Shown here: piece by piece, positions 20,085 through 34,015 of the stretch | How the letters are laid out: the number at the start of each line of letters is the position of its first letter | How positions within the stretch are numbered: position 1 is the stretch's first letter | Assembly (NCBI GenBank): GCA_038227875.1 | Contig: JBBRPR010000059.1 | Span: forward strand, 1 to 51,015 | Origin: Planctomycetota bacterium | GTDB lineage: Bacteria > Planctomycetota > SZUA-567 > H5-PLA8 | Length of the DNA stretch: 51,015 nucleotides | Reading direction: 5' to 3' | The notes under the pieces: generated by a model | Databases searched by the model: none | Told to the model about the DNA's origin: nothing | The model's input: the letters and a program-made list of their open reading frames with translations, nothing else | Made by a program: the position numbers and the translations under genes

Positions 20085-21101
20085 TCACTGTACGACAATT
20101 TCCCACGCTGTATTGGTGATTCGTTCCACACCAATTTTGACGTCCAGAAACTTCTGGATGACTTCGCAATTCGTCAGCGTGTGCGGCGTGGGTTCGAGCG
20201 TGCGAAATGCGCCACCGCGCGCCATCGCCAGCGGCAACAGCAACTGATCGGCGAGATGCGTGCCGACCGGCGCGTCGGTGCGGAGGTACTCGCGCGCTTC
20301 CTTGGCCGCCTGATGTGCAACGGCTTCCGCGCTGACGCCACGCTCACCGAATCCCGTGAAGACTTCCGTGACGTGTTCGCTTTCGACGATAACCTGCGCG
20401 ATGTTGCCTGGCCCGATCGCCGTCGTGATCTCGTCGAGCAACCGCGCGCTCTTATCGAGTTCGAGCGCCGCGACCATCACTTCCAACTCGCGATGCGCGA
20501 TGTTGCGCGGCAGCGCGGAAATGCGCGCGACGGCTGTGGTCGCGCGATGCGCGCCACGTTCGCGCAGTTCCAGCGGCGAGAGTTTTTCGACGGGCGTGAT
20601 CGCGACGGTGACTTCGCCGCCACCGGCTGGATAGAAGCCCGGACGGACGAGCGTCGCATCCACGCGCGCGCCCATGCGGGCGAGCAGCGGCAGGAATGCT
20701 TTGGCGAGGAAATCAAACGGCGGCGCCGCCGGATTGTGCGTGCCGCCGCCCAAGGTCAGCGTCGACGGCGCACTGGCCGTGAGCAGCGTCGGCAGCACTG
20801 TCTGCAGCACGAGCATGGCGCTGCCGGCCGTGCCGACCGCAAACGCGTACGTCCCCGCGCGGCGCGTGGTCGGCTTGAACGTCAGTTCCATCGCACCGAG
20901 CGCCACGCCGGAGACATCAGCGCCGCCGATTTCCGCGGCCGCCTGAACGGCGGTGAGATGCTGCCGCAGCAGGCCAGGCTTCTTGCGGCCGGCGCGGATG
21001 TTCTTGATCGTGAACGGCTGGCCGGTCAGCACGGAAAGGCTGAGTGCCGAGCGGAGGATCTGGCCGCCGCCTTCGCCTGAGGATCCGTCTAGAGTTATCA
21101 T
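20085..21101 (-). CDS. rtcA: RNA 3'-terminal phosphate cyclase
   Basis: MITLDGSSGEGGGQILRSAL, IRAGRKKPGLLRQHL, GFYPAGGG, HLADQ, HTLTN. ATG 21101 has an AAGGA RBS; the track start at 21122 lies in a repeat. Confidence 0.97.
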   Translation of the reverse strand: MITLDGSSGEGGGQILRSALSLSVLTGQPFTIKNIRAGRKKPGLLRQHLTAVQAAAEIGGADVSGVALGAMELTFKPTTRRAGTYAFAVGTAGSAMLVLQTVLPTLLTASAPSTLTLGGGTHNPAAPPFDFLAKAFLPLLARMGARVDATLVRPGFYPAGGGEVTVAITPVEKLSPLELRERGAHRATTAVARISALPRNIAHRELEVMVAALELDKSARLLDEITTAIGPGNIAQVIVESEHVTEVFTGFGERGVSAEAVAHQAAKEAREYLRTDAPVGTHLADQLLLPLAMARGGAFRTLEPTPHTLTNCEVIQKFLDVKIGVERITNTAWEIVVQ

Positions 21102-21115
21102 TGGTTTCCTTAACG

Positions 21116-21170
21116 GAGTCATTGGTCATTGGGTATTGGTCATCGGTCATTTTTCATTTACGAGGAGCGG
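21116..21170. repeat. Left 55-bp inverted repeat built from GTCATTG-type heptamers
   Basis: 53/55 identical to the reverse complement of 21759-21813. Confidence 0.9.
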
Positions 21171-21211: not shown

Positions 21212-21682
21212 CTATTCCACAGACAAATTCGGCGCAAAGCGATGCACAAGCTTCAGGAGTTCCACTGGACTAAGTTCGAGATACATCACAAAGAGTTGAA
21301 TCTCTCCTGCCTTTCGAGACAACAACACACACGTATGTTCCGTCGCGTATGCCTTGGAAATATCCGACCATTTACCCGTCATATTGTTTGTAGAAAATCC
21401 CTCTCGTGTAAATTTGATCACAGGCGTGGCCGCCGAATTCCGTCTGGCAAAAAAGACAAGTAGCGCGAGTACTGTCGACACAATTGCCAACGGTAGTCCA
21501 AACGTTCTCGCCATGAGAACCGTTACCGGTTGGCTCGATGAGAGCCCAACCAGATAAAATCCAATAGCAACCGCGGCCGCTAACGCGAACAACAGCGACT
21601 GGTTTGATTTCTTCTTCTGACTCTCAAATATCTCTATGCTCCCGTCTGGACATTCGACACACAGCTCTAATGGATTTGCCAT
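21212..21682 (-). CDS. Hypothetical protein with two TM helices (cargo between the inverted repeats)
   Basis: 156-aa ORF with two hydrophobic segments; visibly AT-richer than rtcA and rtcB. Confidence 0.7.
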   Translation of the reverse strand: MANPLELCVECPDGSIEIFESQKKKSNQSLLFALAAAVAIGFYLVGLSSSQPVTVLMARTFGLPLAIVSTVLALLVFFARRNSAATPVIKFTREGFSTNNMTGKWSDISKAYATEHTCVLLSRKAGEIQLFVMYLELSPVELLKLVHRFAPNLSVE

Positions 21683-21817: not shown

Positions 21818-23320
21818 CTAATCATCCGCCTGCGAGCCATCCTTGATCACGAAGCGCGCATTGAGCTTCGCGACCGTGCGCGCCAATCCGGCCGCGGTGA
21901 CGCTGCGGAGGACTTCCGTGAAATCCTTGTACGCGGCGGGGGCTTCGTCGCGGGGGTATTCGCGGCAGTTGGTCAGGATGTCGTGGTCCACGAACTCCTG
22001 GTCGATCTTCTTCTGATCGAGCGCCCGCGTCGCGGCCTTGCGGCCCATCGCTCGTCCGGCGCCGTGGTTGACGCTAAAGCAGCTCTTTTCGGCGCCCGCT
22101 TCGGCCACCATCACCACGCTGCCGTCGCGCGGGTTTCCGGGAAGCAGAATCGGGTGGCCGGTCTTCTCGAAGACCGTGTCCTTCAGCGCGTGATGATGCG
22201 CCGGAAATGCGCGCGTCGCGCCTTTGCGGTGCACCCACGAAACGGTGTTCTTCACCACTTCCTCGCGCGCGATGTTGTGGCTGATGAAATAAACCAGGTG
22301 GCCCTTCACACCGGGAATGATTTCCTGGAACGCTTCCAGCACCAGCGCGTTGATCAGCAAATGATTGATCGTGGCGAAGTTCGCGCCCAGCGACATGTCG
22401 TCGATGTACGCGTCGGCTTCGGGCGTACCCAGCGGCGCGTAGACCAGTTCGCGGTCTTCACCCGGAAGCGGAATGTTCCACTGCGCGAACTTGTGCTGCA
22501 GCGCTCGGAACTGTCCCATCGCCAGGTTGTGACCAAAGCCGCGCGAACCGCAGTGCGACAGGAACGCCACGCGGCCGTCGAGCAGACCGAAGTTGTCGGC
22601 CGTGCCCGCGTTCTTTTCGCGGTCCTGGAGTTCCACGACTTCGCATTCGCCGAAGTGGTTTCCGCCACCGTACGAACCGAGCTGGCCAATCTTGTCGGCG
22701 AAGTTGGAGAACTCACGCTGCGTCAGCAGGTAGTCCAGACGGTTGGCCAGCGCGTCGTGCGTATGGTCATGACCGGTGTGCGCCGAATCTTCGCAGCGCT
22801 GCGCCCATTCGGGCGGAATGCCGACCGCGGCGCAAACCTCACGCGACGCACCTTCCACCACCGCGCGCTTTCCGAGCGCGGCGTCGATGTGGCGGGACTT
22901 CTTCACCGAACGCTGCCCCTTCCCTGCACCAGTCGGCAGACGGGAGACGATGGCGTTGATCAATTCGCGGCGGACTTCGCGGCCGAGAATCTGATCGGCC
23001 GGGAGGTCGAGCTGCAGGAGGCTCATCGAGCACTTGATGTCCACGCCCACTGGACCCGGATAGATGTGGGTTGGCGAAACCATGACACAGCCTACCGGCG
23101 CGCCGTAGCCGAGATGCGCGTCGGGGTTAAGGACGAGGTCGGTCACGCCCGGCGCCAGGCGCGAGTTGATCGCCTGCTGCAGGCAGCCGGCGTCGAAGCC
23201 GTTGCGGATGGATTCGGTGCCGATGACGGTGATCGGCTTGGTGACATCGTTGGTCACTGGGAGGAGCGCAGTGGCTTCGCCGGTGGGGATCAGAGCGGGC
23301 TTGTGTTCGGGAAGGTTCAT
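21818..23320 (-). CDS. rtcB: RtcB-family RNA ligase
   Basis: PDAHLGYGAPVG, VGVDIKC, GGGNHF, HCGSRG, SHN, HRKGAT, HGAGR, DEAPAAYKD. Confidence 0.95.
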   Translation of the reverse strand: MNLPEHKPALIPTGEATALLPVTNDVTKPITVIGTESIRNGFDAGCLQQAINSRLAPGVTDLVLNPDAHLGYGAPVGCVMVSPTHIYPGPVGVDIKCSMSLLQLDLPADQILGREVRRELINAIVSRLPTGAGKGQRSVKKSRHIDAALGKRAVVEGASREVCAAVGIPPEWAQRCEDSAHTGHDHTHDALANRLDYLLTQREFSNFADKIGQLGSYGGGNHFGECEVVELQDREKNAGTADNFGLLDGRVAFLSHCGSRGFGHNLAMGQFRALQHKFAQWNIPLPGEDRELVYAPLGTPEADAYIDDMSLGANFATINHLLINALVLEAFQEIIPGVKGHLVYFISHNIAREEVVKNTVSWVHRKGATRAFPAHHHALKDTVFEKTGHPILLPGNPRDGSVVMVAEAGAEKSCFSVNHGAGRAMGRKAATRALDQKKIDQEFVDHDILTNCREYPRDEAPAAYKDFTEVLRSVTAAGLARTVAKLNARFVIKDGSQADD

Positions 23321-23329
23321 GGTTTTTAA

Positions 23330-23608
23330 TCTCTCGCAAAGACGCTAAGACGCAAAGACGCAAAGAACGGTGGTTTTAGCTGGACTGGCTTCGGTCGGAC
23401 GCTTTCCTTGTTCATAGGCGAAATGTTACGGAATGTTACAAAATGTTACATCGAACGGGGGCGGTTTTGTAATCTCGCGCAAAGCCGCAAAGGCGCAAAG
23501 AACGGCTCGGATTGAGGCGGACGGAAATGGGGGCTGAGCGTTCTTGTTCATAGGCGAAATGTTACCGAATGTTACAAAATGTTACATCAAATGGGGCCTG
23601 TTTTGTAA
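23330..23608. repeat. Duplicated intergenic unit: CGCAAAG(A/G/C) octamer runs plus a 66-bp block containing (AATGTTAC)x3
   Basis: 66-bp blocks at 23407-23472 and 23543-23608 (offset 136). Octamer runs at about 23335-23370 and 23478-23505. Confidence 0.85.
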
Positions 23609-23781
23609 CCCGTGCCGACGAGTGATTGGCGGAACATCGCGCTCACCTTGAGCTTCGGCACGTTCGACAGGCTCAGTGCAAGCCCATACGACAGGCTCAG
23701 TGCAAGCCGTCTCAGCCGGCGGAATTCGAACCCGCGCCTCGTGGTTTTAAGCCATGTAGTTTCACCGGCATTCGACACGGG
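23609..23781 (-). ncRNA. Y8: YrlA-like Y RNA with an anticodon-like arm (UAA) and a repeat insert
   Basis: 5' CCCGUGUCGAAUGC pairs with 3' GUCGGCACGGG. T-arm GCGGG-UUCGAAU-UCCGC lies 5' of D-arm GCUC-AAGGU-GAGC (permuted order). Hairpin UGG-CUUAAAA-CCA. Confidence 0.8.
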
Positions 23782-23783
23782 GA

Positions 23784-24242
23784 TCATTTTTCGGTTTCCA
23801 ATTCGTGCAACTTTTCAAAGTAGGCTCTATTCCTTTGGTGTGTGTTGAAGTACATACCGTCGTCGACCAGGTAGGCGCGCAATGTTTTCTCACATTCCGT
23901 TTTTAAGTCTTCCATCACATTGATTAGAACGATGATCGCAGTAGCAAATTCTTCGTCCTCTGCATCCATTAATTTGTGCGCATCTTTCCAGACAATGGCG
24001 ATTTTGCGTTCGGAAAGATCCGCGATCCCATTGAAAAGGGAGTCTTTGATTGCTTCCCACCCACCGAAGACGATGGGCGGATTTAGCGGGAGGTGCTCTT
24101 TGATAACGCGCACAAAGTCCGCGTTAGACGCAATGGAATCCAGCCTGAAGACGCAAAACTCCTCCTTTACGAGCTGACGATGTAACGCGTCCAATCGTTC
24201 TTCGGGCAGATGGCACGCCCACGATCCTTCCTCGAGAGTCAT
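23784..24242 (-). CDS. Barstar-family (barnase inhibitor-like) protein
   Basis: FRLDSIASNADFVRVIKEHLPL...GGWEAIKDSL...IAIVWKDAHKL follows the barstar pattern (xWDALxDxL...IVW). Confidence 0.7.
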   Translation of the reverse strand: MTLEEGSWACHLPEERLDALHRQLVKEEFCVFRLDSIASNADFVRVIKEHLPLNPPIVFGGWEAIKDSLFNGIADLSERKIAIVWKDAHKLMDAEDEEFATAIIVLINVMEDLKTECEKTLRAYLVDDGMYFNTHQRNRAYFEKLHELETEK

Positions 24243-24622
24243 GCGGACAACTCCTCAATCATTTCAACACACGCTGGATCAAAATCCAGTCCTCGGTGCG
24301 TATGGCAATCGGAGCTTTCTGTACCCACTTCATGTCCATTCGCACACAGTGTGTTTCGTCCGCTGAATCCGGACGGGCCGCAACAGCCGAACAGTCTTTT
24401 GGGATCGGGATGATGTCTGGTGTTGATTGCGTCATCCAGATTAATTACCGCATGACCCGATTCAAATCCGATCGCTAACTTGTCCGCGATCGCAAAATGT
24501 CCGAGCGGAAGATAGTCACAACCGGTGTCTTCAAAGGCCAGCTTCGTGCGATCAACCAACTCCACAACCGGATTGGAGAGAGGAAGCTTGCAGATCGCGC
24601 AGCGGAAGATCATGTTTTCCAT
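24239..24622 (-). CDS. Cys-rich hypothetical protein, possibly a Zn-binding Yippee/Mis18-like fold
   Basis: FRCAICKLPL...GCCGPSG...NTLCANGHEVGTESSDC. ATG 24622 has an AAGGGAG RBS (alternative start 24640). Its stop overlaps the barstar ATG. Confidence 0.65.
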   Translation of the reverse strand: MENMIFRCAICKLPLSNPVVELVDRTKLAFEDTGCDYLPLGHFAIADKLAIGFESGHAVINLDDAINTRHHPDPKRLFGCCGPSGFSGRNTLCANGHEVGTESSDCHTHRGLDFDPACVEMIEELSA

Positions 24623-24645
24623 GTGGCAAGCTCCCTTCATTATAA

Positions 24646-24775
24646 TCAGACGCGACTATCGTTTGCGGAAAGAGCATGCTCTACCGCTGAGCTACGATCC
24701 CAGTGCGTTTCCGCCGCTGGAACCGACGGGAATTGAACCCGCGACACTGTACTTCCTCGCTGCATTCGCGCCTGA
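24646..24775 (-). ncRNA. Y7: YrlA-like Y RNA (permuted tRNA mimic)
   Basis: UCAGGCGCGAAUGC...UAGUCGCGUCUGA stem; T-arm GCGGG-UUCAAUU-CCCGU; closed acceptor CGGUUCC/GGGAUCG; D-arm UA-GCUC-AGCGGUA-GAGC. Confidence 0.85.
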
Positions 24776-24782
24776 CTGCATA

Positions 24783-24898
24783 TTCGGCGACTAAAAGTTG
24801 AGAAACGTTTCCGCTGTCCTGATTTGGACGACCGCTTGCGCGGCCGGGACTCTCACCCGGATCTGCGGCTTGATGTAGTTCCTCGGGCATTCGCCGAG
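24783..24898 (-). ncRNA. Y6: compact YrlA-like Y RNA
   Basis: CUCGGCGAAUGC...UAGUCGCCGAA stem; T-arm CCGGG-UGAGAGU-CCCGG; acceptor CCGC-GCAA-GCGG; D-arm GUCC-AAAUCA-GGAC. Confidence 0.82.
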
Positions 24899-25013
24899 CA
24901 CTTTTGTTCCTCATAAGACTTCGCACTTTGTTAGGATATCACGCCGGTATTCATCTGTAAAGCGGATTGTAGATTTATTCCTTGTATTTCGGTTGTTGCT
25001 TCCTTAAGTACGA

Positions 25014-25348
25014 GTGACGACAAAGGGTTGGTGAAATCTATACGCGCTCGCCATGAGCTACGGCCCCGTCTTTTGTGGCCTGTGGATTCGGGCGCTTTGG
25101 CCACAACCCTTTCAGGGTTGTCGCGCTGGCGCGGGCTCGTCGACCCAGGGCAGCGCTGCGGCGCAACCCTGGGCTTTGTAGCCGTTACCTCTTCGAGGTA
25201 AGTGAAGGCGGCGGCGCTTCGCGCTCATCCTTCACCTCAGTCCTCAGTCCTCAGTCCTCGGCCCTCAGTCCTTTCCGTTATGAAGCCGGCGGGAATCGAA
25301 CCCGCTCCTCGTTCTCCTAAAGAATGTAGTTCCACCGGCATTCGTCAC
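25014..25348 (-). ncRNA. Y5: YrlA-like Y RNA with an anticodon-like arm (UAG) and a 214-nt insert in the acceptor loop
   Basis: GUGACGAAUGC...UUGUCGUCAC stem; UUC-UUUAGGA-GAA hairpin; T-arm GCGGG-UUCGAUU-CCCGC; acceptor CGGCUUC/GGGGCCG; D-arm GCUC-AUGGC-GAGC. Confidence 0.78.
25068..25281. repeat. REP-like hairpin cluster plus (CCTCAGT)x5 inside Y5
   Basis: Hairpins ACAACCCT-TTC-AGGGTTGT (25103-25121), CCCAGGG...CCCTGGG (25144-25173) and TTACCTC-TTC-GAGGTAA (25185-25201); heptamers at 25235-25269. Confidence 0.75.
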
Positions 25349-25383
25349 AAGCTTGGTGTAACTCGCTGCGCTCGTTTTTTGGA

Positions 25384-25405
25384 CCGGGCGGGACGCCCGG
25401 ACTAC
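25384..25405 (-). repeat. GTAG-type REP-like palindrome
   Basis: The minus strand reads GTAG-T-CCGGGCG-TCC-CGCCCGG. Confidence 0.6.
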
Positions 25406-25413
25406 GAACAGTA

Positions 25414-25507
25414 ATGGCGACAAAATTGGCGAGAGTCTGCCCCCGGTTTCCCGGGCTGGGATTCGAACCCACGGCGTGCCGATGTACTCCCCACACGCAT
25501 TCGCCAC
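25414..25507 (-). ncRNA. Y4: Y-RNA-like element with a T-arm and GAAA hairpin, no D-arm
   Basis: GUGGCGAAUGC...GGGGAGUACAU...UGGG-UUCGAAU-CCCA...CCGG-GAAA-CCGG...ACUCUC...UUGUCGCCAU. Confidence 0.78.
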
Positions 25508-25541
25508 GTCTGTTTCTCAACATTTTTGAACCCTGCAAAAT

Positions 25542-25634
25542 ATGGCGACTAAGTTTGGAGAGAGTTGCCGTCGGTTTCCCGATTTGGGGTTCGACCCCCA
25601 GGCGTCGATGTACTCCCTGACCAGCATTCGCCAC
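25542..25634 (-). ncRNA. Y3: Y-RNA-like element with a T-like arm and GAAA hairpin, no D-arm
   Basis: GUGGCGAAUGC...GGGAGUACAU...UGGGG-GUCGAA-CCCCA...UCGG-GAAA-CCGA...ACUCUC...UAGUCGCCAU; a paralog of Y4 with compensatory changes. Confidence 0.78.
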
Positions 25635-25665
25635 GTTTCAGATTAAACAGTCACACTCTCCAGAA

Positions 25666-25732
25666 GCACGCCGACTAAGATTAATTTCGAGACGTCATTT
25701 TCAAGATGTAGTCCCGAAGGCATTCGGCGCAC
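25666..25732 (-). ncRNA. Y2: minimal Y-RNA-like element (Ro-type stem only, 67 nt)
   Basis: GUGCGCCGAAUGCCUUCGGGACUACAU...GUCUCGAA...UUAGUCGGCGUGC. Confidence 0.7.
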
Positions 25733-25748
25733 GTATTCCATTTTAAAA

Positions 25749-25817
25749 CCGTGCCGACTAAGACTTCTTGTGGAGACGCGACATGGGTTAATGTAGTCCC
25801 CGCTGCATTCGGCCCGG
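25749..25817 (-). ncRNA. Y1: minimal Y-RNA-like element (Ro-type stem only, 69 nt)
   Basis: CCGGGCCGAAUGCAGCGGGGACUACAU...GUCUCCAC...UUAGUCGGCACGG. Confidence 0.7.
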
Positions 25818-25903
25818 AATTGTCACTGTTCATAGCACCCATTTGTCGCCCCGTGTGAATGGGGCGACCTGCGTGCTATTTTCCTAATGCCGATCCCATC
25901 AGT

Positions 25904-27460
25904 TCAGATCGTCGTCTTCTCAATCACATCCGCCCAGGTCTTGCCGTTGAGACGACCGGCAGCGAACTCGGCGATTACGTCGAAGACACGGTCCGAAAAA
26001 CCGCCGATGTTCAAGATGTCCGCACGCTCCTGCGCCTGGGTCGTGCCGTTGGGCTGGATGTCCAGACAGACCAGCTTCGCGTCCGGATTGCGGACTTTGA
26101 ACGCCATCCACTCCTTCATCGTGTTCGTGCGGCTGGCGCCCACGCTTGCGGAACGGGCGCTGTCCACCCACGACTCGTTGTCCGAAACGTAGATGATCAG
26201 ATCGCCGCGCGCCTTCTGATCGTTGAGCAGCATTAACGGCGCGCTGCAGTTCGTTCCGCCCGACGGGAGACTCGTGAGCTGCTTGGCGATGGTCATCACG
26301 CTGTCGCGCGGATTGACACGGAACGGGACGGCAGTGCATTCGAACGCCACAATTTCCGTCTCCTTGTTCTTGCGCACCATCGCCGCCGCCACGAGCGCCG
26401 CGACATCGATGCAGCGTACGGCAGTGGTCGCTCCGGCACGGTGGCCGGTGACCGGCGAATGCATCGAACCGGAAATGTCCGGGAAGACATAGACCTTTCC
26501 GTCGATGCGCGGCACGTTCTCGGTCGCGATTTCCATCGCGTCCTGGAGCGCTTCGCGTACGATGTGGGGCACTTCCTTGCCCGCGGCAGTGTAGGCCATC
26601 AGCAACTGGTACGGGAAGACACGGGCCTTCTTCACCAGTTCGGCGTCGCTGAGACGATCGGCGATCACGCGCGCCAGGTTTCCGCCGTTAAACACGCCAT
26701 GACGGGCGAACGTGTTCAGGTTCATGCGCGTCATCTGCCACGGCGCGTTGCGGGCGATCGAAATCCATTCGTCCTGACCCAGCGAGAGCGCGGTCAACAT
26801 CTGGAACGGCACGTCGGGAGCATCGCCCACCGGCTTGCGCTTGAAGGCTTCGAACTTCTGCACCAATTCCGGCAGCGCAGACGCGTCATGTTCGCGGCCG
26901 ATCAGGTACGCGTAGAGCGCGGCGCGGGACGGCGTCTTCGGCTTGGGATGGACCATCTTCACGATGTCGGCCAGCGACGGGTTCGCACCCACCGAGGCGC
27001 GGAAGACCTGGTCGTCTGAGCGCGCGTCGAGCCAGTTGCGGACCATGCGCTTGGGCGCGGTTCCCAGCGAGTTGCGGCCGACCGCGCCACTGCGGATCAT
27101 CTGGACAAAGTTCATCAGCATCTTGCCGTTGTCGATGACGCGGTCGAAAATCTCGCACATCAATCCGGGCGACTTGACCGAGAGGACGGCGCAGAGCAAC
27201 GCGGGCATGTCCTTCATGTAGCCCTTTTCGCGGCAGTAGAGCGCCAGGCGCGCGATGAATTCGGCGTCGACTTGAGCGGAAACCTCGAGGACGGTCTTGA
27301 GCTGATCGTCGGCGGTGGCGTAGAACGTGTGGTTCATGCAACCGGTGATCGCGTACTGCGCGAGCTTGTGCTTGGCGTTGAAGGCATACGCCTGGCCGCC
27401 GGCCTTGTTGAGCGCGTTGGTCTTCGGGAGCTTGGTGCTGAAGAGATTCTTGTTGGCCAT
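25904..27460 (-). CDS. rsr: Ro60/TROVE-domain RNA-binding protein (Rsr)
   Basis: NKAGGQAY...KLAQYAITG, MKDMPALL, RMNLNTFARHGVF; vWA MIDAS DISGSM, GGTNCSAPL, SDNESW, IGGFSD. ATG 27460 has an AAGGAGG RBS. Confidence 0.93.
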   Translation of the reverse strand: MANKNLFSTKLPKTNALNKAGGQAYAFNAKHKLAQYAITGCMNHTFYATADDQLKTVLEVSAQVDAEFIARLALYCREKGYMKDMPALLCAVLSVKSPGLMCEIFDRVIDNGKMLMNFVQMIRSGAVGRNSLGTAPKRMVRNWLDARSDDQVFRASVGANPSLADIVKMVHPKPKTPSRAALYAYLIGREHDASALPELVQKFEAFKRKPVGDAPDVPFQMLTALSLGQDEWISIARNAPWQMTRMNLNTFARHGVFNGGNLARVIADRLSDAELVKKARVFPYQLLMAYTAAGKEVPHIVREALQDAMEIATENVPRIDGKVYVFPDISGSMHSPVTGHRAGATTAVRCIDVAALVAAAMVRKNKETEIVAFECTAVPFRVNPRDSVMTIAKQLTSLPSGGTNCSAPLMLLNDQKARGDLIIYVSDNESWVDSARSASVGASRTNTMKEWMAFKVRNPDAKLVCLDIQPNGTTQAQERADILNIGGFSDRVFDVIAEFAAGRLNGKTWADVIEKTTI

Positions 27461-27514: not shown

Positions 27515-27529
27515 GCACCGCGCATGCCA
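27515..27529 (-). promoter_or_regulatory. Sigma54 -24/-12 promoter for the rsr-Y RNA-rtcB-rtcA operon
   Basis: TGGCATGCGCGGTGC fits GG-N10-GC, about 55 nt upstream of the rsr ATG and next to a sigma54 activator gene. Confidence 0.75.
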
Positions 27530-27556
27530 GCGTGAAAATTCTCGATAAGGAAGTCG

Positions 27557-27662: not shown

Positions 27663-29279
27663 ATGAAACGAAACGTTGTGCTGGGCCTTCTGGGCACCAC
27701 TTTGGACGCGGGATTTGGGCCGAATCGCTGGTCGCGCTGGCGGCCGTCGGTGGCGCTGTGTCAGCACGAGGACTTCCTGGTTCATCGCTTTGAATTGATG
27801 ATTCAGAAGCGGCATCTGAAGATGGCCAAGGCGCTGGTCGCGGATATTCATTCCGTCTCGCCGGAAACGGACGTGCGGCTGCATGAAGTTGAATTTTCCG
27901 ATCCGTGGGATTTTCAGGAGGTCTACGCGGCCCTTCACGATTTCGCGCGCGGGTACACCTTCAACACCGACGATCACGATTATCTCGTCCACATCACCAC
28001 CGGCACGCACGTGGCTCAGATTTGTCTGTTTCTGCTGACGGAGTCGCGCCATCTTCCGGCGAAGTTGCTCCAGACCTCACCGCCGCGCCGGAGCCAGCAG
28101 GGACCGCTGCAGGATCAGTCGGGGCATTACAGCGTCATCGACTTGGACCTGTCGAAGTACGACGGCATCGCGTCGCGTTTTCGCAAGGAACATCAGGAAG
28201 CGGTCTCGATGCTCAAGTCGGGCATTGAGACGCGGAACGCGCGGTTCAATCAACTCATCGAGCGGATCGAGCGGGTCGCAATCGTCTCGCGTGCGCCGGT
28301 GCTGTTGATGGGGCCGACGGGCGCGGGCAAATCGCAATTGGCGCGGCGCATTTTCGAACTGAAGAAAGCGCGGCGGCAGATCGACGGGCCGTTTGTGGAA
28401 GTGAACTGCGCGACGGTGCGCGGCGATGGCGCGATGTCGACGCTGTTTGGGCATAAGAAGGGCGCGTTCACCGGCGCGACGTCGGACCGGCCGGGGTTGC
28501 TCAAGGCGGCGAACAAGGGGATCTTGTTTCTCGATGAGATCGGCGAACTGGGGCTCGACGAACAGGCGATGCTGCTGCGTGCGCTGGAAGAGAAAGTATT
28601 TTTGCCGCTGGGCGCAGACACTGAGACGGGCAGCGACTTCATGCTGATCGCGGGAACCAATCGCGATCTGTCGAGCGCGGTGCAGACGGGGCGCTTCCGC
28701 GACGATCTGCTCGCGCGCATTAATTTGTGGACCTTTCACCTGCCGGGCCTGCGCGACCGGTTGGAGGACATCGAGCCCAACGTTCACTACGAGTTGGAGA
28801 AGATTTCGGCGTCGCTGGGCGCGCGGGTCACGTTCAACAAGGAGGCGCGCGAGGCGTTCTTGAGTTTCACGACGTCGCCGGACGCGACGTGGGCGGGGAA
28901 CTTTCGCGACTTGAACAGCGCCATCGAGCGCATGGCAACGCTGGCGTCGGGCGGGCGTATTTCAGTCGAGATCGTCGACGAAGAGCTCCAGCGATTGAGG
29001 CGGCAGTGGGCGCTTCCGACGGCTGCTGCGGCTGGAACTGGGGGTGAGCTCGTCGCGGAAATCCTCGGCGAGGACCGTGCCGCGGAGCTTGACCGTTTTG
29101 ACCGGGTCCAGCTCGCGGATGTCCTGCAGGTGTGCCGGAGCGCGCGCAGTCTCTCCGAGGCCGGGCGCATCCTGTTTGCGGAAACTCGCAAGAAGAAGCT
29201 GCTCGCTAACGACGCCGATCGGCTGCGCAAGTACCTCGCCCGATTCGGGCTGGAGTGGAACGGCGTCCGAAGTTCCTGA
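27663..29279 (+). CDS. rtcR: Sigma54-dependent RNA repair activator RtcR (CARF + AAA+)
   Basis: RWSRWRPSV, DPWDFQEVY, HITTGTHVAQIC, Walker A GPTGAGKS, GAFTGA, LFLDEIGELG, NDADRLRKYLARFGL. Confidence 0.96.
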   Translation: MKRNVVLGLLGTTLDAGFGPNRWSRWRPSVALCQHEDFLVHRFELMIQKRHLKMAKALVADIHSVSPETDVRLHEVEFSDPWDFQEVYAALHDFARGYTFNTDDHDYLVHITTGTHVAQICLFLLTESRHLPAKLLQTSPPRRSQQGPLQDQSGHYSVIDLDLSKYDGIASRFRKEHQEAVSMLKSGIETRNARFNQLIERIERVAIVSRAPVLLMGPTGAGKSQLARRIFELKKARRQIDGPFVEVNCATVRGDGAMSTLFGHKKGAFTGATSDRPGLLKAANKGILFLDEIGELGLDEQAMLLRALEEKVFLPLGADTETGSDFMLIAGTNRDLSSAVQTGRFRDDLLARINLWTFHLPGLRDRLEDIEPNVHYELEKISASLGARVTFNKEAREAFLSFTTSPDATWAGNFRDLNSAIERMATLASGGRISVEIVDEELQRLRRQWALPTAAAAGTGGELVAEILGEDRAAELDRFDRVQLADVLQVCRSARSLSEAGRILFAETRKKKLLANDADRLRKYLARFGLEWNGVRSS

Positions 29280-30868: not shown

Positions 30869-31003
30869 GTACACCCGGCACTTTCGCTGGTGCCGTGCTC
30901 GTATAGGATGCTTCACTTGCGTGGAAACGCGCCATATATATGTATGGGCGTTTCCACGCGGATTTTTCAAGTCGTATCGCGGACGGGGGAGATTCAGGGG
31001 CGG

Positions 31004-34000
31004 ATGACGGAATACAAACTGCTGGTTGATGGCAAGGAATTGAAAGTCAGCACGCACCGGGATGAAGACCGCAACACCTTTGAAGTGACTTTCGCGCCAG
31101 GCGTTCCCTGCACTCTGCATTGGGGATTGCGGGGCGTCGGAAGGGAATGGAAGAGCCCGCCGGAGAACATCTGGCCGGCGCAGACGACCTCCGCCGATGC
31201 GCAGTCGGCGGATTCTTTATTCCCGGCCAGCCCGGCCGAATCCAAAGTGAGTTTCAGTGTTCCCAACACGGCCAACGCCAAAGGCGTGATGTTCGTGCTG
31301 CATTTTCCGCAGACCAAGCGCTGGGTGAAAAACGGCAACGAGGATTATTACATTCCGTTTGAAGGCAATCCGCAAGCGACGCCGATCGACGGAATGATTG
31401 ACACGATTTGCGGCGCGGAAGTCGGCAAGGGCTCGTGGACGCTGATGCACCGCTTCCACCTGGCTCACGATCTGATCAACGAAGCTAACAACAATCCCGA
31501 CGCGCTGGCGCTGATTTTCGTCTGGCTGCGCTTCAGCGCGATCCGGCAACTGGATTGGCAGCGCAATTACAATACGAAACCGCGCGAACTCTCGGCGGCT
31601 CAGGATCGCCTGACCAAACGCATCGCGGCGCTCTACCGACACAGCCCGGCGGCGCGGACGTGGGCGCGCGGGATGCTCACCACGCTGGGCCGCGGCGGTG
31701 AAGGGCAGCAGGTGCGCGATGAAATTCTGCAGATCATGCACCGTCACCACATCAAGGAAACACACGGCCACTTTATGGAAGAGTGGCATCAGAAGCTGCA
31801 CAACAACACCACACCCGACGATGTGATCATCTGCGAAGCGTTGCTGGCGTTTTTGGACAGCAACGGCGACTTGAAGCGTTTCTACGATCATCTGGAAGGC
31901 AACGGCGTTACGCGCGACCGGCTGCGCAGCTTCGAGCGCGCGATCAAGACCGATCCCAATTTCAATCATGGCGACAAAGAACGGTTGATGCCGGAGTTCC
32001 GCAACTTCCTGCGTATTTTGAAGTCGGTGCACTCGGGGACGGATTTCGATTCCGCCGTCGACGCCGCGCAGAGGTATTTCAGTGGCGAACTGCGGGGCAA
32101 GATTCAGGAACTCGGTGGAATGCGCCACGGCCATGCGCCGCTGGCGGACGTCGCCAAAACGGCGACGGCCGCGCGCGAAATTCTGGCGCGCGACGCCTGG
32201 AATTCCAAAGACGACGGTGCGATGCGCGACCTGCTGTATCTCGACCTTGCGCTGGAAGGATTTTTGCGCCTGGCTTTCGAACGGCAGGACTGGTTGAAGG
32301 TCAATCGCGATACGCTCAGCTTTCTGCTCCAACTGGTTGTGCGGAATCTGCAGGTGACCAATCCTTCCGATGAACTGGGCATGATCCAGCGGCACTTCGA
32401 CGCGCTGGTCAGCAACCCAAACAAGGACGCCAATTGGGCTCTCCAAGCCAAGAGTGTTACCGACCGCCTGGGGCGTTGTGTGCAGGAAATTTCGAGCAGC
32501 TTCTACGCGACGTTGCAGCCGAAGGCCGAGCAACTGGGCCGCGCGTGCAAAGTTCAGGACTGGGTGCTGCCGCTTTTCAGCGAAGAGGTGATTCGCGGCA
32601 GCCTGCTGTTCGTGCTCTCGCTGATGCTGCGGCGGCTCGACGCGGAACTCCGTGCGGCCGCGGGACTCGGAGGCTGGCAGGTAGTCAGTCCGTCGAACGT
32701 TAAAGGCCGCGTGCGCGTGGTCGACAGCCTGATGTCAGTTCAAGGGCAGCGCTTTGGCGAATCGACCGTGATCGTCTCCGATCACGTCAGCGGCAACGAG
32801 GACATTCCCGAAGGCGTCGCCGCTGTGATCACGACGGCGACGGTCGATCTCGTGTCGCACGCCGCCGTGCGCGCGCGCAATGGCCGCGTACTTTTTGCCA
32901 CCTGTTTTGATGCAAAACCCTACGAAACACTGAAGGCGTTGAACGGCAAGAACGCGGCGCTGGAAGTGAGCCCCGGCGGCGATGTGCTTGTCCAGGAGAG
33001 CAGCGCGGGCAGCGCGATCTTACAGGAACACGCGAAGCTTGGAGGATCGATTCGCCAGCGTGCGTTCTCGACGTGGGCGGTAAGCGCGGGAGAGTTCACG
33101 CCGGAGATTGTGGGCGGAAAGTCGAACAACCTGAACGGGCTGCGCGGCAAGCTACCGGACTGGATTGCGTTTCCGAAATCGATGGCGCTGCCATTCGGTG
33201 TCTTCGAGAAGCTGCTGTCGAGCGGTGAGAACAGCGACGTACGCGAAAAATACGCCGCGCTGGTGGGGCGCATTGAAGAAAATGTGCCGGCGACGCTGCA
33301 GAAAATTCGCGCACTGATTCTGGAGCTCAAGCCGGCGGCCGATTTCGATAGCGCGCTGGTGCGGACATGGGAGCGCACCGGGCTTCCGCCCTTCGAACGC
33401 GAAGCGAACTGGAAAGCGATCACACGCGTCTGGGCGTCGAAGTGGAACGACCGCGCGTATCTCTCGCGCCGCGCGCTGGGGTTGAGTCACACCGATCTGA
33501 CGATGGCAGTGCTGATTCAGGAAGTCGTGGAAGCCGATTACGCGTTCGTGATCCACACGGCCAATCCGATCAACGGCAATCGCGGCGAAATTTTCGGCGA
33601 GGTCGTACTGGGTCTGGGCGAAACGCTGGTCGGCAACGATCCGGGTCGCGCCTTCGGGTTCGTCTTTCGCAAAAATGACGGAGCGGTTAAACTGATTTCT
33701 TATCCAGGCAAAAGTTCAGGCTTGTATGGTAAGGGGCTGATTTTCCGATCCGATTCCAACGGCGAGGACCTGGAAGGATTCGCGGGCGCCGGCTTGTACG
33801 ACAGCGTGCTGGCGCACGAACCCGAACGCCGGCGCCTGGATTACAGCCGCGAGCCGCTGGTGACCAACGCGAAGTTCCGCGCCGACCTCGTCGCGAAAAT
33901 CGCGCATGTCGGATTGGAAGTGGAGAAAGCATTCAGCGCCCCGCAGGACATTGAAGGCGCGATCAGCCGCGGGCAGAGTTTTGTCGTGCAAACGCGGCCG

Positions 34001-34015
34001 CAGGTCGGGCTATAG
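31004..34015 (+). CDS. Alpha-glucan water dikinase homolog (CBM45-like + phospho-His + PEP/pyruvate-binding domains)
   Basis: LHWG...W..PP..WP, LMHRF, WQRNYNTKPRELSAAQDRLT, FMEEWHQKLHNNTTPDDV, LVSHAAVRARN, GGKSNNL, QDIEG...VQTRPQ. Start reassigned to ATG 31004. Confidence 0.88.
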   Translation: MTEYKLLVDGKELKVSTHRDEDRNTFEVTFAPGVPCTLHWGLRGVGREWKSPPENIWPAQTTSADAQSADSLFPASPAESKVSFSVPNTANAKGVMFVLHFPQTKRWVKNGNEDYYIPFEGNPQATPIDGMIDTICGAEVGKGSWTLMHRFHLAHDLINEANNNPDALALIFVWLRFSAIRQLDWQRNYNTKPRELSAAQDRLTKRIAALYRHSPAARTWARGMLTTLGRGGEGQQVRDEILQIMHRHHIKETHGHFMEEWHQKLHNNTTPDDVIICEALLAFLDSNGDLKRFYDHLEGNGVTRDRLRSFERAIKTDPNFNHGDKERLMPEFRNFLRILKSVHSGTDFDSAVDAAQRYFSGELRGKIQELGGMRHGHAPLADVAKTATAAREILARDAWNSKDDGAMRDLLYLDLALEGFLRLAFERQDWLKVNRDTLSFLLQLVVRNLQVTNPSDELGMIQRHFDALVSNPNKDANWALQAKSVTDRLGRCVQEISSSFYATLQPKAEQLGRACKVQDWVLPLFSEEVIRGSLLFVLSLMLRRLDAELRAAAGLGGWQVVSPSNVKGRVRVVDSLMSVQGQRFGESTVIVSDHVSGNEDIPEGVAAVITTATVDLVSHAAVRARNGRVLFATCFDAKPYETLKALNGKNAALEVSPGGDVLVQESSAGSAILQEHAKLGGSIRQRAFSTWAVSAGEFTPEIVGGKSNNLNGLRGKLPDWIAFPKSMALPFGVFEKLLSSGENSDVREKYAALVGRIEENVPATLQKIRALILELKPAADFDSALVRTWERTGLPPFEREANWKAITRVWASKWNDRAYLSRRALGLSHTDLTMAVLIQEVVEADYAFVIHTANPINGNRGEIFGEVVLGLGETLVGNDPGRAFGFVFRKNDGAVKLISYPGKSSGLYGKGLIFRSDSNGEDLEGFAGAGLYDSVLAHEPERRRLDYSREPLVTNAKFRADLVAKIAHVGLEVEKAFSAPQDIEGAISRGQSFVVQTRPQVGL

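Follow-up and report, generated by a model that had tools for sequence, protein, structure and literature searches.

An expanded array of eight probable Y RNA genes between rsr and rtcB in an RNA-repair operon of a Planctomycetota bacterium

The window analysed here is a stretch of 51,015 nucleotides (nt) from the assembly GCA_038227875.1 of a Planctomycetota bacterium (contig JBBRPR010000059.1, positions 1 to 51,015, forward strand). An RNA-repair operon lies on its minus strand and is composed of rsr, encoding the Ro60 orthologue, rtcB (RNA ligase) and rtcA (RNA 3'-phosphate cyclase), while rtcR, the gene of a sigma-54-dependent activator, is divergent from rsr. An earlier note on this DNA, made from the letters alone, had proposed this arrangement, and Pfam searches identified Rsr, RtcR, RtcB and RtcA. 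The same note had described eight Y-RNA-like units on the minus strand at 23609-25817, and all of them were found as placed, on the rsr strand and with the common letters CGAAUGC, A(C/G)UACA and GUCG. From this sequence evidence we consider it highly probable that the stretch between rsr and rtcB holds eight genes for bacterial Y RNAs of the YrlA/YrlB kind, forming an expanded array downstream of rsr. The features of the locus are collected in Table 1.

All eight units (U1 to U8) occupy the minus strand of the interval bounded by the rsr stop (25904) and rtcB (23320). They lie downstream of that stop at distances from 85 to about 2300 nt, within 4 kb of rsr. The spacers between them measure 7-111 nt, with the exception of the 864 nt from U7 to U8. 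Every unit starts with 6-10 variable nt, continues with CGAAUGC, 7-9 variable nt, A(C/G)UACA, a payload and GUCG, and ends with the complement of its first 6-10 nt. This layout would give all units a common handle, in which an outer helix of the 5' and 3' ends closes on CGA/UCG, an internal loop sets AAUGC opposite an A-rich strand, and a second helix ends at A(C/G)UACA. Unconstrained folding closed the outer helix in seven units and in part in U5, and when only the CGA/UCG pairs were fixed, 8/8 units gave the outer helix, the internal loop, the second helix and the payload. Four second helices had been quoted in the earlier note; those of U2, U6 and U7 pair as written, and that of U8 does so apart from one A.C mismatch (7/8 pairs, next to an outer helix of 10 base pairs (bp)).

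Table 1. Coordinates of the eight RNA units and of the other features of the locus (handle model, covariance model described in the text; MFE, minimum free energy; ORF, open reading frame)
Feature	Position	Strand	Description
U1	25748..25818	-	71 nt; plain hairpin Y RNA (YrlB-like), paralogue of U2; handle model 53.6 bits (training row) and fold
U2	25665..25733	-	69 nt; plain hairpin Y RNA (YrlB-like); handle model 59.4 bits (training row); both helices in MFE fold
U3	25539..25637	-	99 nt; handle, T-arm-like hairpin and GAAA-capped hairpin, no D arm; handle model 38.1 bits, E 4.5e-9
U4	25411..25510	-	100 nt; T-arm-like and GAAA-capped hairpins, no D arm; paralogue of U3; handle model 27.5 bits, E 6.8e-6
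U5	25010..25351	-	342 nt; YrlA-like permuted tRNA mimic with T arm, 7-bp acceptor-like stem and D arm; paralogue of U8
U6	24781..24898	-	118 nt; YrlA-like; three payload hairpins without canonical T or D loop sequences
U7	24647..24773	-	127 nt; canonical YrlA-like permuted tRNA mimic; T-loop and D-arm motifs
U8	23609..23782	-	174 nt; YrlA-like; T arm, D-arm-like hairpin; exact 5' motif; 24-nt tandem duplication in acceptor-like region
rtcR	27663..29279	+	sigma-54-dependent activator, divergent from rsr; Pfam RtcR 279.8 bits (CARF-like), Sigma54_activat 170 bits (AAA+)
Candidate sigma-54 promoter	27517..27531	-	TGGCAT-N5-GTGC, read from sequence; about 57 nt upstream of likely rsr start
rsr	25904..27459	-	Ro60 orthologue; Pfam vWA_Ro60 78.3 bits, TROVE 32.8 bits; HEAT-repeat ring and vWA
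Stable hairpin	25832..25879	-	between rsr stop and U1, without U tract; 85-nt spacer -35.8 kcal/mol, z -5.5
ORF133/127	24239..24622	-	zinc-type beta-tent protein (Yippee/Mis18/CULT/MsrB/RIG-I-CTD-like; CTD, C-terminal domain), as judged from a structure model; no Pfam match
ORF152	23784..24242	-	Barstar-like protein; Pfam Barstar (PF01337) 27.0 bits, cut-off 23.4
rtcB	21818..23320	-	RNA ligase; Pfam RtcB 334.4 bits
ORF156	21212..21682	-	probably membrane-associated, lineage-specific; weak sub-cut-off Pfam matches only
rtcA	20085..21122	-	RNA 3'-phosphate cyclase; Pfam RTC 263.9 bits

The handle letters were then searched for in the 9.3-Mb genome. The pattern CGAATGCN{7,9}ASTACA has nine copies, eight of which are in the array and one on another contig, and the reversed control pattern has none. 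The helices were compared within the window, and the results showed that the 5' and 3' flanks of the same unit pair at 5.9 of 7 variable positions of the outer helix, against 3.5 of 7 for cross-combinations of units. For the second helix the mean duplex energy was -8.7 kcal/mol with the own partner and -6.3 kcal/mol with the others, and the own partner was the best in only 2/8 rows; this helix discriminates weakly within the window because a GGGAC/GUCUC-like core is common to all units. Its closing pair is C-G in U1, U2, U6 and U8, G-C in U3, U4 and U7, and C.A in U5. According to the accessible part of Chen et al. (2014), the motifs GNCGAAN0-1G and YUAY are described for both YrlA and YrlB, and the former is connected with Ro60 contact. 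GNCGAAN0-1G is literal in 7/8 units, and U7 has C for the first G together with a compensating G on the 3' strand. A(C/G)UACA is present in 8/8 units; five of them match YUAY strictly (C-UAC), and U3, U4 and U7 read GUAC.

The payloads fall into three sets: plain hairpins in U1 and U2, a T-arm-like element only in U3 and U4, and circularly permuted tRNA mimics in U5 to U8. U7 has a T arm, then a loop-capped acceptor-like stem of 7 bp (GGGAUCG/CGGUUCC), then a D arm. The same elements recur in U5 and U8, whose acceptor regions contain additional sequence, and U6 has three hairpins at the positions of those in U7, with the tRNA loop sequences absent. A tRNA-like domain with both T and D arms is thus present in U5, U7 and U8, whereas U3 and U4 have the T arm only and U1 and U2 have neither, and the latter two are therefore classed as YrlB-like rather than YrlA. 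With the Rfam model of YrlA (RF02553, gathering score 69 bits), which the earlier note had suggested as a check of its Y-RNA-like assignment, full-length alignments were obtained for four units below that threshold: U7 (50.1 bits, E 1.2e-9), U6 (49.5 bits, E 1.9e-9), U4 (23.0 bits, E 0.081) and U3 (22.8 bits, E 0.099). E-values of about 1e-9 for U6 and U7 still point to homology, and we class the units as YrlA-like, not as curated members. The assignment to the YrlA/YrlB type is supported. No YrlB-type Rfam family matched the region even at E<=10, and ARAGORN called no tRNA in the array. Weak RF02553 matches also occur away from rsr on three other contigs (C58, C25 and C41; 19-26 bits), for example at C25:19926-20078 (-) with 25.7 bits and C58:44550-44618 (+) with 26.4 bits. 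The equivalent search gives matches in 13/14 control genomes, and the off-locus matches are for this reason probably tRNA-like noise.

To compare the array with homologous loci, we used the best 80 of 426 relatives found in an Rsr protein search (58-67% identity to the Rsr of the window). They come from metagenome-assembled genomes (MAGs) labelled Acidobacteriota (mostly Pyrinomonadaceae), Planctomycetota, Verrucomicrobiota and others. Forty short units from 39 of these loci were aligned with U1 and U2. In this alignment of 42 units, 90.9% of the cells in the two-helix structure are paired, compared to 79.8% in shuffles, and 0/500 shuffles reach any of the observed measures. Changes on both sides are seen in 13/17 pairs, and sliding the partner by 1-3 columns lowers the paired fraction to 31-48%. 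RNAalifold predicted the same two helices without being given a structure. A larger alignment of 126 matches gave similar results, with 91.7% paired against 70.6% and changes on both sides in 15/17 pairs. In line with the selection on RNA structure claimed by the earlier note, both handle helices covary over 42 and over 126 homologous units, and the strong evidence for this is that from other genomes.

A covariance model of the handle was built from the 42-unit alignment. Applied to the window, it recovers U3 and U4, which were not among its training rows, with the scores given in Table 1. Throughout the genome, 4/4 matches at E<=1 are inside the array, which together with the motif count (8/9 copies) answers the earlier question of whether the motif occurs independently of rsr: the handle is confined to this locus. 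On the 80 related rsr loci, the model gave 185 matches at E<=0.01, and 185/185 were on the rsr strand; the strict motif has 0 copies on the strand opposite rsr in all 80. Single motif matches in relatives (L134-L137) were discounted as chance occurrences, there being no rsr in their neighbourhood. In U8, a second 5' strand, GUGCCGAAGCU (23609-23664, minus strand), could pair with the same 3' end (handle model 15.2 bits, E 0.03); this may reflect a different fold or what is left of a shorter unit.

The genome has a single rsr, and rpoN is present. The likely start of rsr is the ATG at 27459, not the 27589 of the longest ORF, because homologues align from residue 40-44 and AAGGAGG precedes the ATG. 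Upstream of it, the promoter candidate in Table 1 has the correct GG/GC spacing and a weak -12 element. In the related loci, a sigma-54-like motif was found within 300 nt upstream of rsr in 15/80, and on the opposite strand in 0/80. Terminator-like sites are not in excess in the region (8 found, 9.6 expected from shuffles), and the stable hairpin in the spacer between rsr and U1 could be a processing or mRNA-stabilising element. Co-transcription of the units from an RtcR-dependent promoter is plausible on this sequence evidence. In the mechanism that we propose, RtcR and sigma-54 would drive one long transcript from upstream of rsr, and the units would be cut from it, each of them being bound and stabilised by the single Rsr. 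The payloads of the resulting set of Ro ribonucleoproteins would tether or mimic different partners, as is thought for YrlA and YrlB. The constant handle and variable payload pictured in the earlier note hold for this array, in that the handle helices covary and the payloads differ, and they fit the established modular view of Y RNAs.

Several results weigh against taking all eight units as Y RNAs expressed in this way. The finder used for the 42-unit alignment required outer-helix pairing, so the pairing of helix 1 is partly there by construction, while helix 2 was not used in the choice; the 126 units were fitted to the handle model, which favours the structure. The handle model misses U5 to U8, because long payloads are penalised, and what else it matches in the window scores no better than chance (15 bits, E 0.03). 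No unit attains the Rfam gathering score, the best having 50.1 bits against 69. For the putative units U5 and U8 the case consists of exact motifs and pairing. U5 has a C.A mismatch where 41/42 relatives have C-G, and this mismatch and its repeat insertions mean that U5 may be decaying. The promoter candidate is weak, with 3 mismatches to TGGCAC-N5-TTGCW, and a plain scan for that consensus with 2 mismatches was not above shuffles and did not list it. A sigma-70-like site (24961-24933) lies upstream of U6, and there may therefore be more than one transcript.

Three side observations concern the operon and its surroundings. In two genomes of the same family (L132 on G009:C122 and L133 on G006:C2) the layout rtcR-rsr-Y RNA-rtcB is kept, with RtcB 70-73% and RtcR 63-64% identical to those of the window. 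The Rsr of these two is only 37-41% identical to that of the window, and the Rsr of other phyla 58-67%, from which it seems that rsr, and perhaps the Y RNAs too, has been exchanged within an otherwise vertical operon. ORF156, between rtcB and rtcA, encodes 156 residues with a hydrophobic middle and without a family match. Beyond rtcR, a protein of 1041 residues at 30890-34015 (+) has the domains of an alpha-glucan water dikinase (Ig_N_CWD1, GWD1_pHisD and PPDK_N), a family best known from plants.

It is possible, though we hold it to be rather unlikely, that only the usual three or four types of RNA (plain hairpin, T-arm-only and full tRNA mimic) work at this locus, and that the extra copies, namely one member each of the pairs U1/U2, U3/U4 and U5/U8, are recent duplicates, some of them decaying. 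Three paralogue pairs fit this explanation: U1/U2 are 71% identical over 64 nt, U3/U4 79% over 98 nt and U5/U8 81% over 65 nt (the 5' half of U5 is 81-82% identical). Contigs from one metagenome run (X1, the probable source) tile the whole region without differences. In a second run (X2), from a close relative with scattered differences, a contig joins 25413 to 25542 and skips 128 nt, so that only a single copy of U3/U4 is present there. The payload of U5 is broken by about 220 nt (25055-25285) of dispersed repeats, consisting of a 7-nt tandem repeat (GGACTGA; read as CCTCAGT x5.4) and an element of about 105 nt, with 54 other matches in the genome on many contigs. The handle mismatch of U5 already described points the same way. 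U8 has an internal 24-nt tandem duplication (repeat D7) and an insert with four weak matches elsewhere in the genome, and a gene cassette separates it from the other units. The related loci, moreover, have a median of 3 units.

Against this explanation, all eight units keep the invariant handle letters and both helices despite a paralogue divergence of 19-29%, and the changes in helix 1 between U5 and U8 preserve pairing (A-U versus U.G). The position of the U5 insert is also relevant, since it lies in the loop closing the acceptor-like stem. In the accessible account of Chen et al. (2014), RNase P cuts the acceptor loop of YrlA from Mycobacterium smegmatis, CCA is added and the two halves stay bound to Rsr, the 7-bp acceptor stem being held responsible. 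U5 and U7 resemble this RNA in their 7-bp acceptor-like stems, and in U5 the insert is in the loop that would be cut. They differ in that the 220-nt repeat-derived insert has no counterpart in the accessible part of that report, and for U5 we infer cleavage from the likeness. By analogy with the M. smegmatis precedent and given the 7-bp stems, removal of the U5 insert by tRNA-processing enzymes is a reasonable possibility; located exactly at the loop of RNase P cleavage, the insert could be removed without harm. In the reading that we prefer, with all eight units as Y RNA genes, the array grew by local duplication, as seen from the three paralogue pairs. It has not settled yet: a related strain has one copy fewer, dispersed repeats occupy the U5 acceptor loop, and a cassette has been inserted ahead of U8.

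The cassette between U7 and U8 contains two genes, the start of ORF152 overlapping the stop of ORF133 (ATGA). ORF152 has one relative (88% identity). ORF133 had no Pfam match, a sequence search of the PDB returned nothing, and the ESM Atlas gave only unnamed clusters; its family comprises 460 relatives at E<=1e-3 among 1.84 billion representatives, and in longer members it is joined to a HEAT-repeat region, a kinase domain (AAA_33) or DUF6923. An AlphaFold2 (AF2) model of ORF133 had a predicted local distance difference test score (pLDDT) of 96.4 with 67 sequences and of 33 with 4 sequences. Structure comparison of the model gave Z values of 8.9/8.8 for Mis18 Yippee, 7.3 for MsrB1, 7.0 for YPEL5, 6.7 for cereblon and 6.3 for the MDA5 CTD (5.4-6.3 for the MDA5/RIG-I/LGP2 CTDs), values near the stated background of 7-8, and Foldseek found the same beta-tent families at E 4e-3 and weaker. 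The conserved cysteines are C8, C11, C80, C81, C93 and C106. The modelled protein is assigned to the beta-tent fold, which is an assignment of fold and not of function. Prediction of an ORF133-ORF152 complex gave a score of 0.00, a value obtained without control runs.

The distribution of the cassette is narrow. ORF133, ORF152 and also ORF156 are absent from the 80 related rsr loci, and the ORF133 family occurs in only 2/401 genomes of the phylum, the other being G009. Seven metagenome loci with ORF133 homologues have no adjacent RtcB, Rsr, ORF152-like gene or Y RNA motif, and their neighbours are unrelated. No contig of run X2 covers the cassette region. We read the cassette as a lineage-specific insertion.

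The presence of a Barstar-family gene within the array raises the possibility, which we consider improbable, of an anti-RNase defence island, where the diverse tRNA-like payloads would serve as decoys for different tRNA-cleaving toxins or inhibit them by competition, the task of the Barstar-like protein would be to neutralise an RNase, RtcB and RtcA would carry out repair, and the conflict would drive diversity. The copy number of the array differs between strains, the payloads vary while the handle stays constant, and YrlA as a competitive inhibitor of an anticodon nuclease is raised as a possibility in the accessible part of Hughes et al. (2020). However, none of the 80 related rsr loci has the cassette, which is thus not part of the conserved system; PADLOC gave no matches, for ORF133 included, and no nuclease gene was identified. 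A wider version, to which we give little credence, would make the array a library of tRNA mimics tethered to Ro, evolving fast and varying between strains, in which every payload would serve a different partner or tRNA-directed nuclease. The acceptor-loop inserts of U5 and U8 would then be removed by tRNA-processing enzymes to give two-piece Y RNAs, and the locus would be an inducible island for anti-RNase action and RNA repair, with the Barstar-like and beta-tent proteins as accessory components. A shortened ORF133 homologue also lies directly upstream of an rtcB in the same-family genome G009 (G009:C97, L139).

That the units are tRNA-derived repeats or a mobile or repetitive extragenic palindromic (REP)-like element accumulated here and unrelated to Rsr is hardly credible: the genome is rich in small dispersed repeats, with two families in or next to the array, and T-arm-like sequences draw spurious depth from other organisms, but the handle motif and model are confined to the locus within the genome, the handle is beside rsr and only on the rsr strand in 80 other genomes, the helices covary, and ARAGORN calls no tRNA. 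One of these repeat families is found between U8 and rtcB (23407-23608) as two copies with a 136-nt period carrying GTAACATT x3. It has about 66-136 nt and 51 copies in the genome, on both strands (control pattern 0). This GTAACATT repeat is outside the Y RNA system and looks like an element of the REP or miniature inverted-repeat transposable element (MITE) kind.

Taking the eight units as an expanded set of Y RNA genes, we compared their number with that at related loci. Exact-motif counts, which are lower bounds for these loci, were 0 in 8 of the 80, 1 in 5, 2 in 17, 3 in 27, 4 in 16, 5 in 4, 6 in 1 and 7 in 2. For the 65 loci whose sequence reaches 3 kb or more past rsr, the counts within 3 kb downstream were 0 (4 loci), 1 (4), 2 (21), 3 (18), 4 (14), 5 (3) and 7 (1), with the median already mentioned. 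Seven units each, in about 0.8-1.1 kb, are present in L100 (a Blastocatellia MAG) and L078 (a MAG labelled Myxococcaceae). Both resemble the window in the handle, in the order of hairpin, T-arm-only units and tRNA mimics, and in their position directly downstream of an Rsr 65% identical to that of the window; they differ in having one unit fewer and in being compact, without a coding cassette or large inserts. In the family of the window itself, G009 has four tandem units and G006 two, between rsr and rtcB.

The accessible part of Chen et al. (2014) counts 355 predicted YrlA-like RNAs in the vicinity of rsr, spread over 254 bacteria and 22 phages. It credits every one of the three species studied with two or more Y RNAs, and Deinococcus radiodurans with additional small RNAs upstream of rsr. 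In Table S1 of that study at most four YrlA-like RNAs are given per rsr (Neisseria elongata, Chondromyces apiculatus and Hahella chejuensis). Longer arrays are absent from it because the search of that study could not see plain-hairpin or T-arm-only units, and our literature searches turned up no account of an rsr with more than four Y RNAs. The earlier note knew of no other eight-member array of several architectures. The uniqueness that this implies was overstated in both respects: next to rsr genes of this clade, arrays usually have two to five units and arrays of seven occur in two other lineages, and the variety of architectures is due in part to paralogue pairs and dispersed-repeat insertions. 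Eight is the largest count met and the end of a continuous distribution, not a new kind of system.

The locus and its 80 relatives indicate that a single rsr is followed by an ordered set of three to eight Y RNA genes in many uncultured Acidobacteriota, Planctomycetota and Verrucomicrobiota. Bacterial Y RNAs have so far been studied in three species with two named RNAs each, and public models detect only some of the units of such an array. The arrays are a natural series for asking what a Y RNA payload specifies, and the present locus exemplifies growth by tandem duplication and the tolerance of insertions.

Among known systems, the closest comparisons are with the YrlA family and with the rsr-yrlBA-rtcBA operon of Salmonella Typhimurium, which is under RtcR and sigma-54. 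Like members of RF02553, YrlA-like units of the window join the handle to a permuted tRNA-like domain (T arm, acceptor-like stem and D arm) and lie within 4 kb of rsr on the rsr strand. For Salmonella, induction and Rsr binding have been demonstrated, whereas the locus described here is known from its sequence. The window has eight RNAs instead of two, an extra T-arm-only class and two units with inserts, and a protein-coding cassette and dispersed repeats lie within its RNA region. The two operons nevertheless share a divergent rtcR followed by rsr, Y RNAs, rtcB and rtcA on one strand, as far as the accessible parts of Chen et al. (2013, 2014) and Hughes et al. (2020) describe it, and in both a plain hairpin Y RNA comes first, tRNA-like RNAs come after it, and the handle carries the GNCGAAN0-1G motif.

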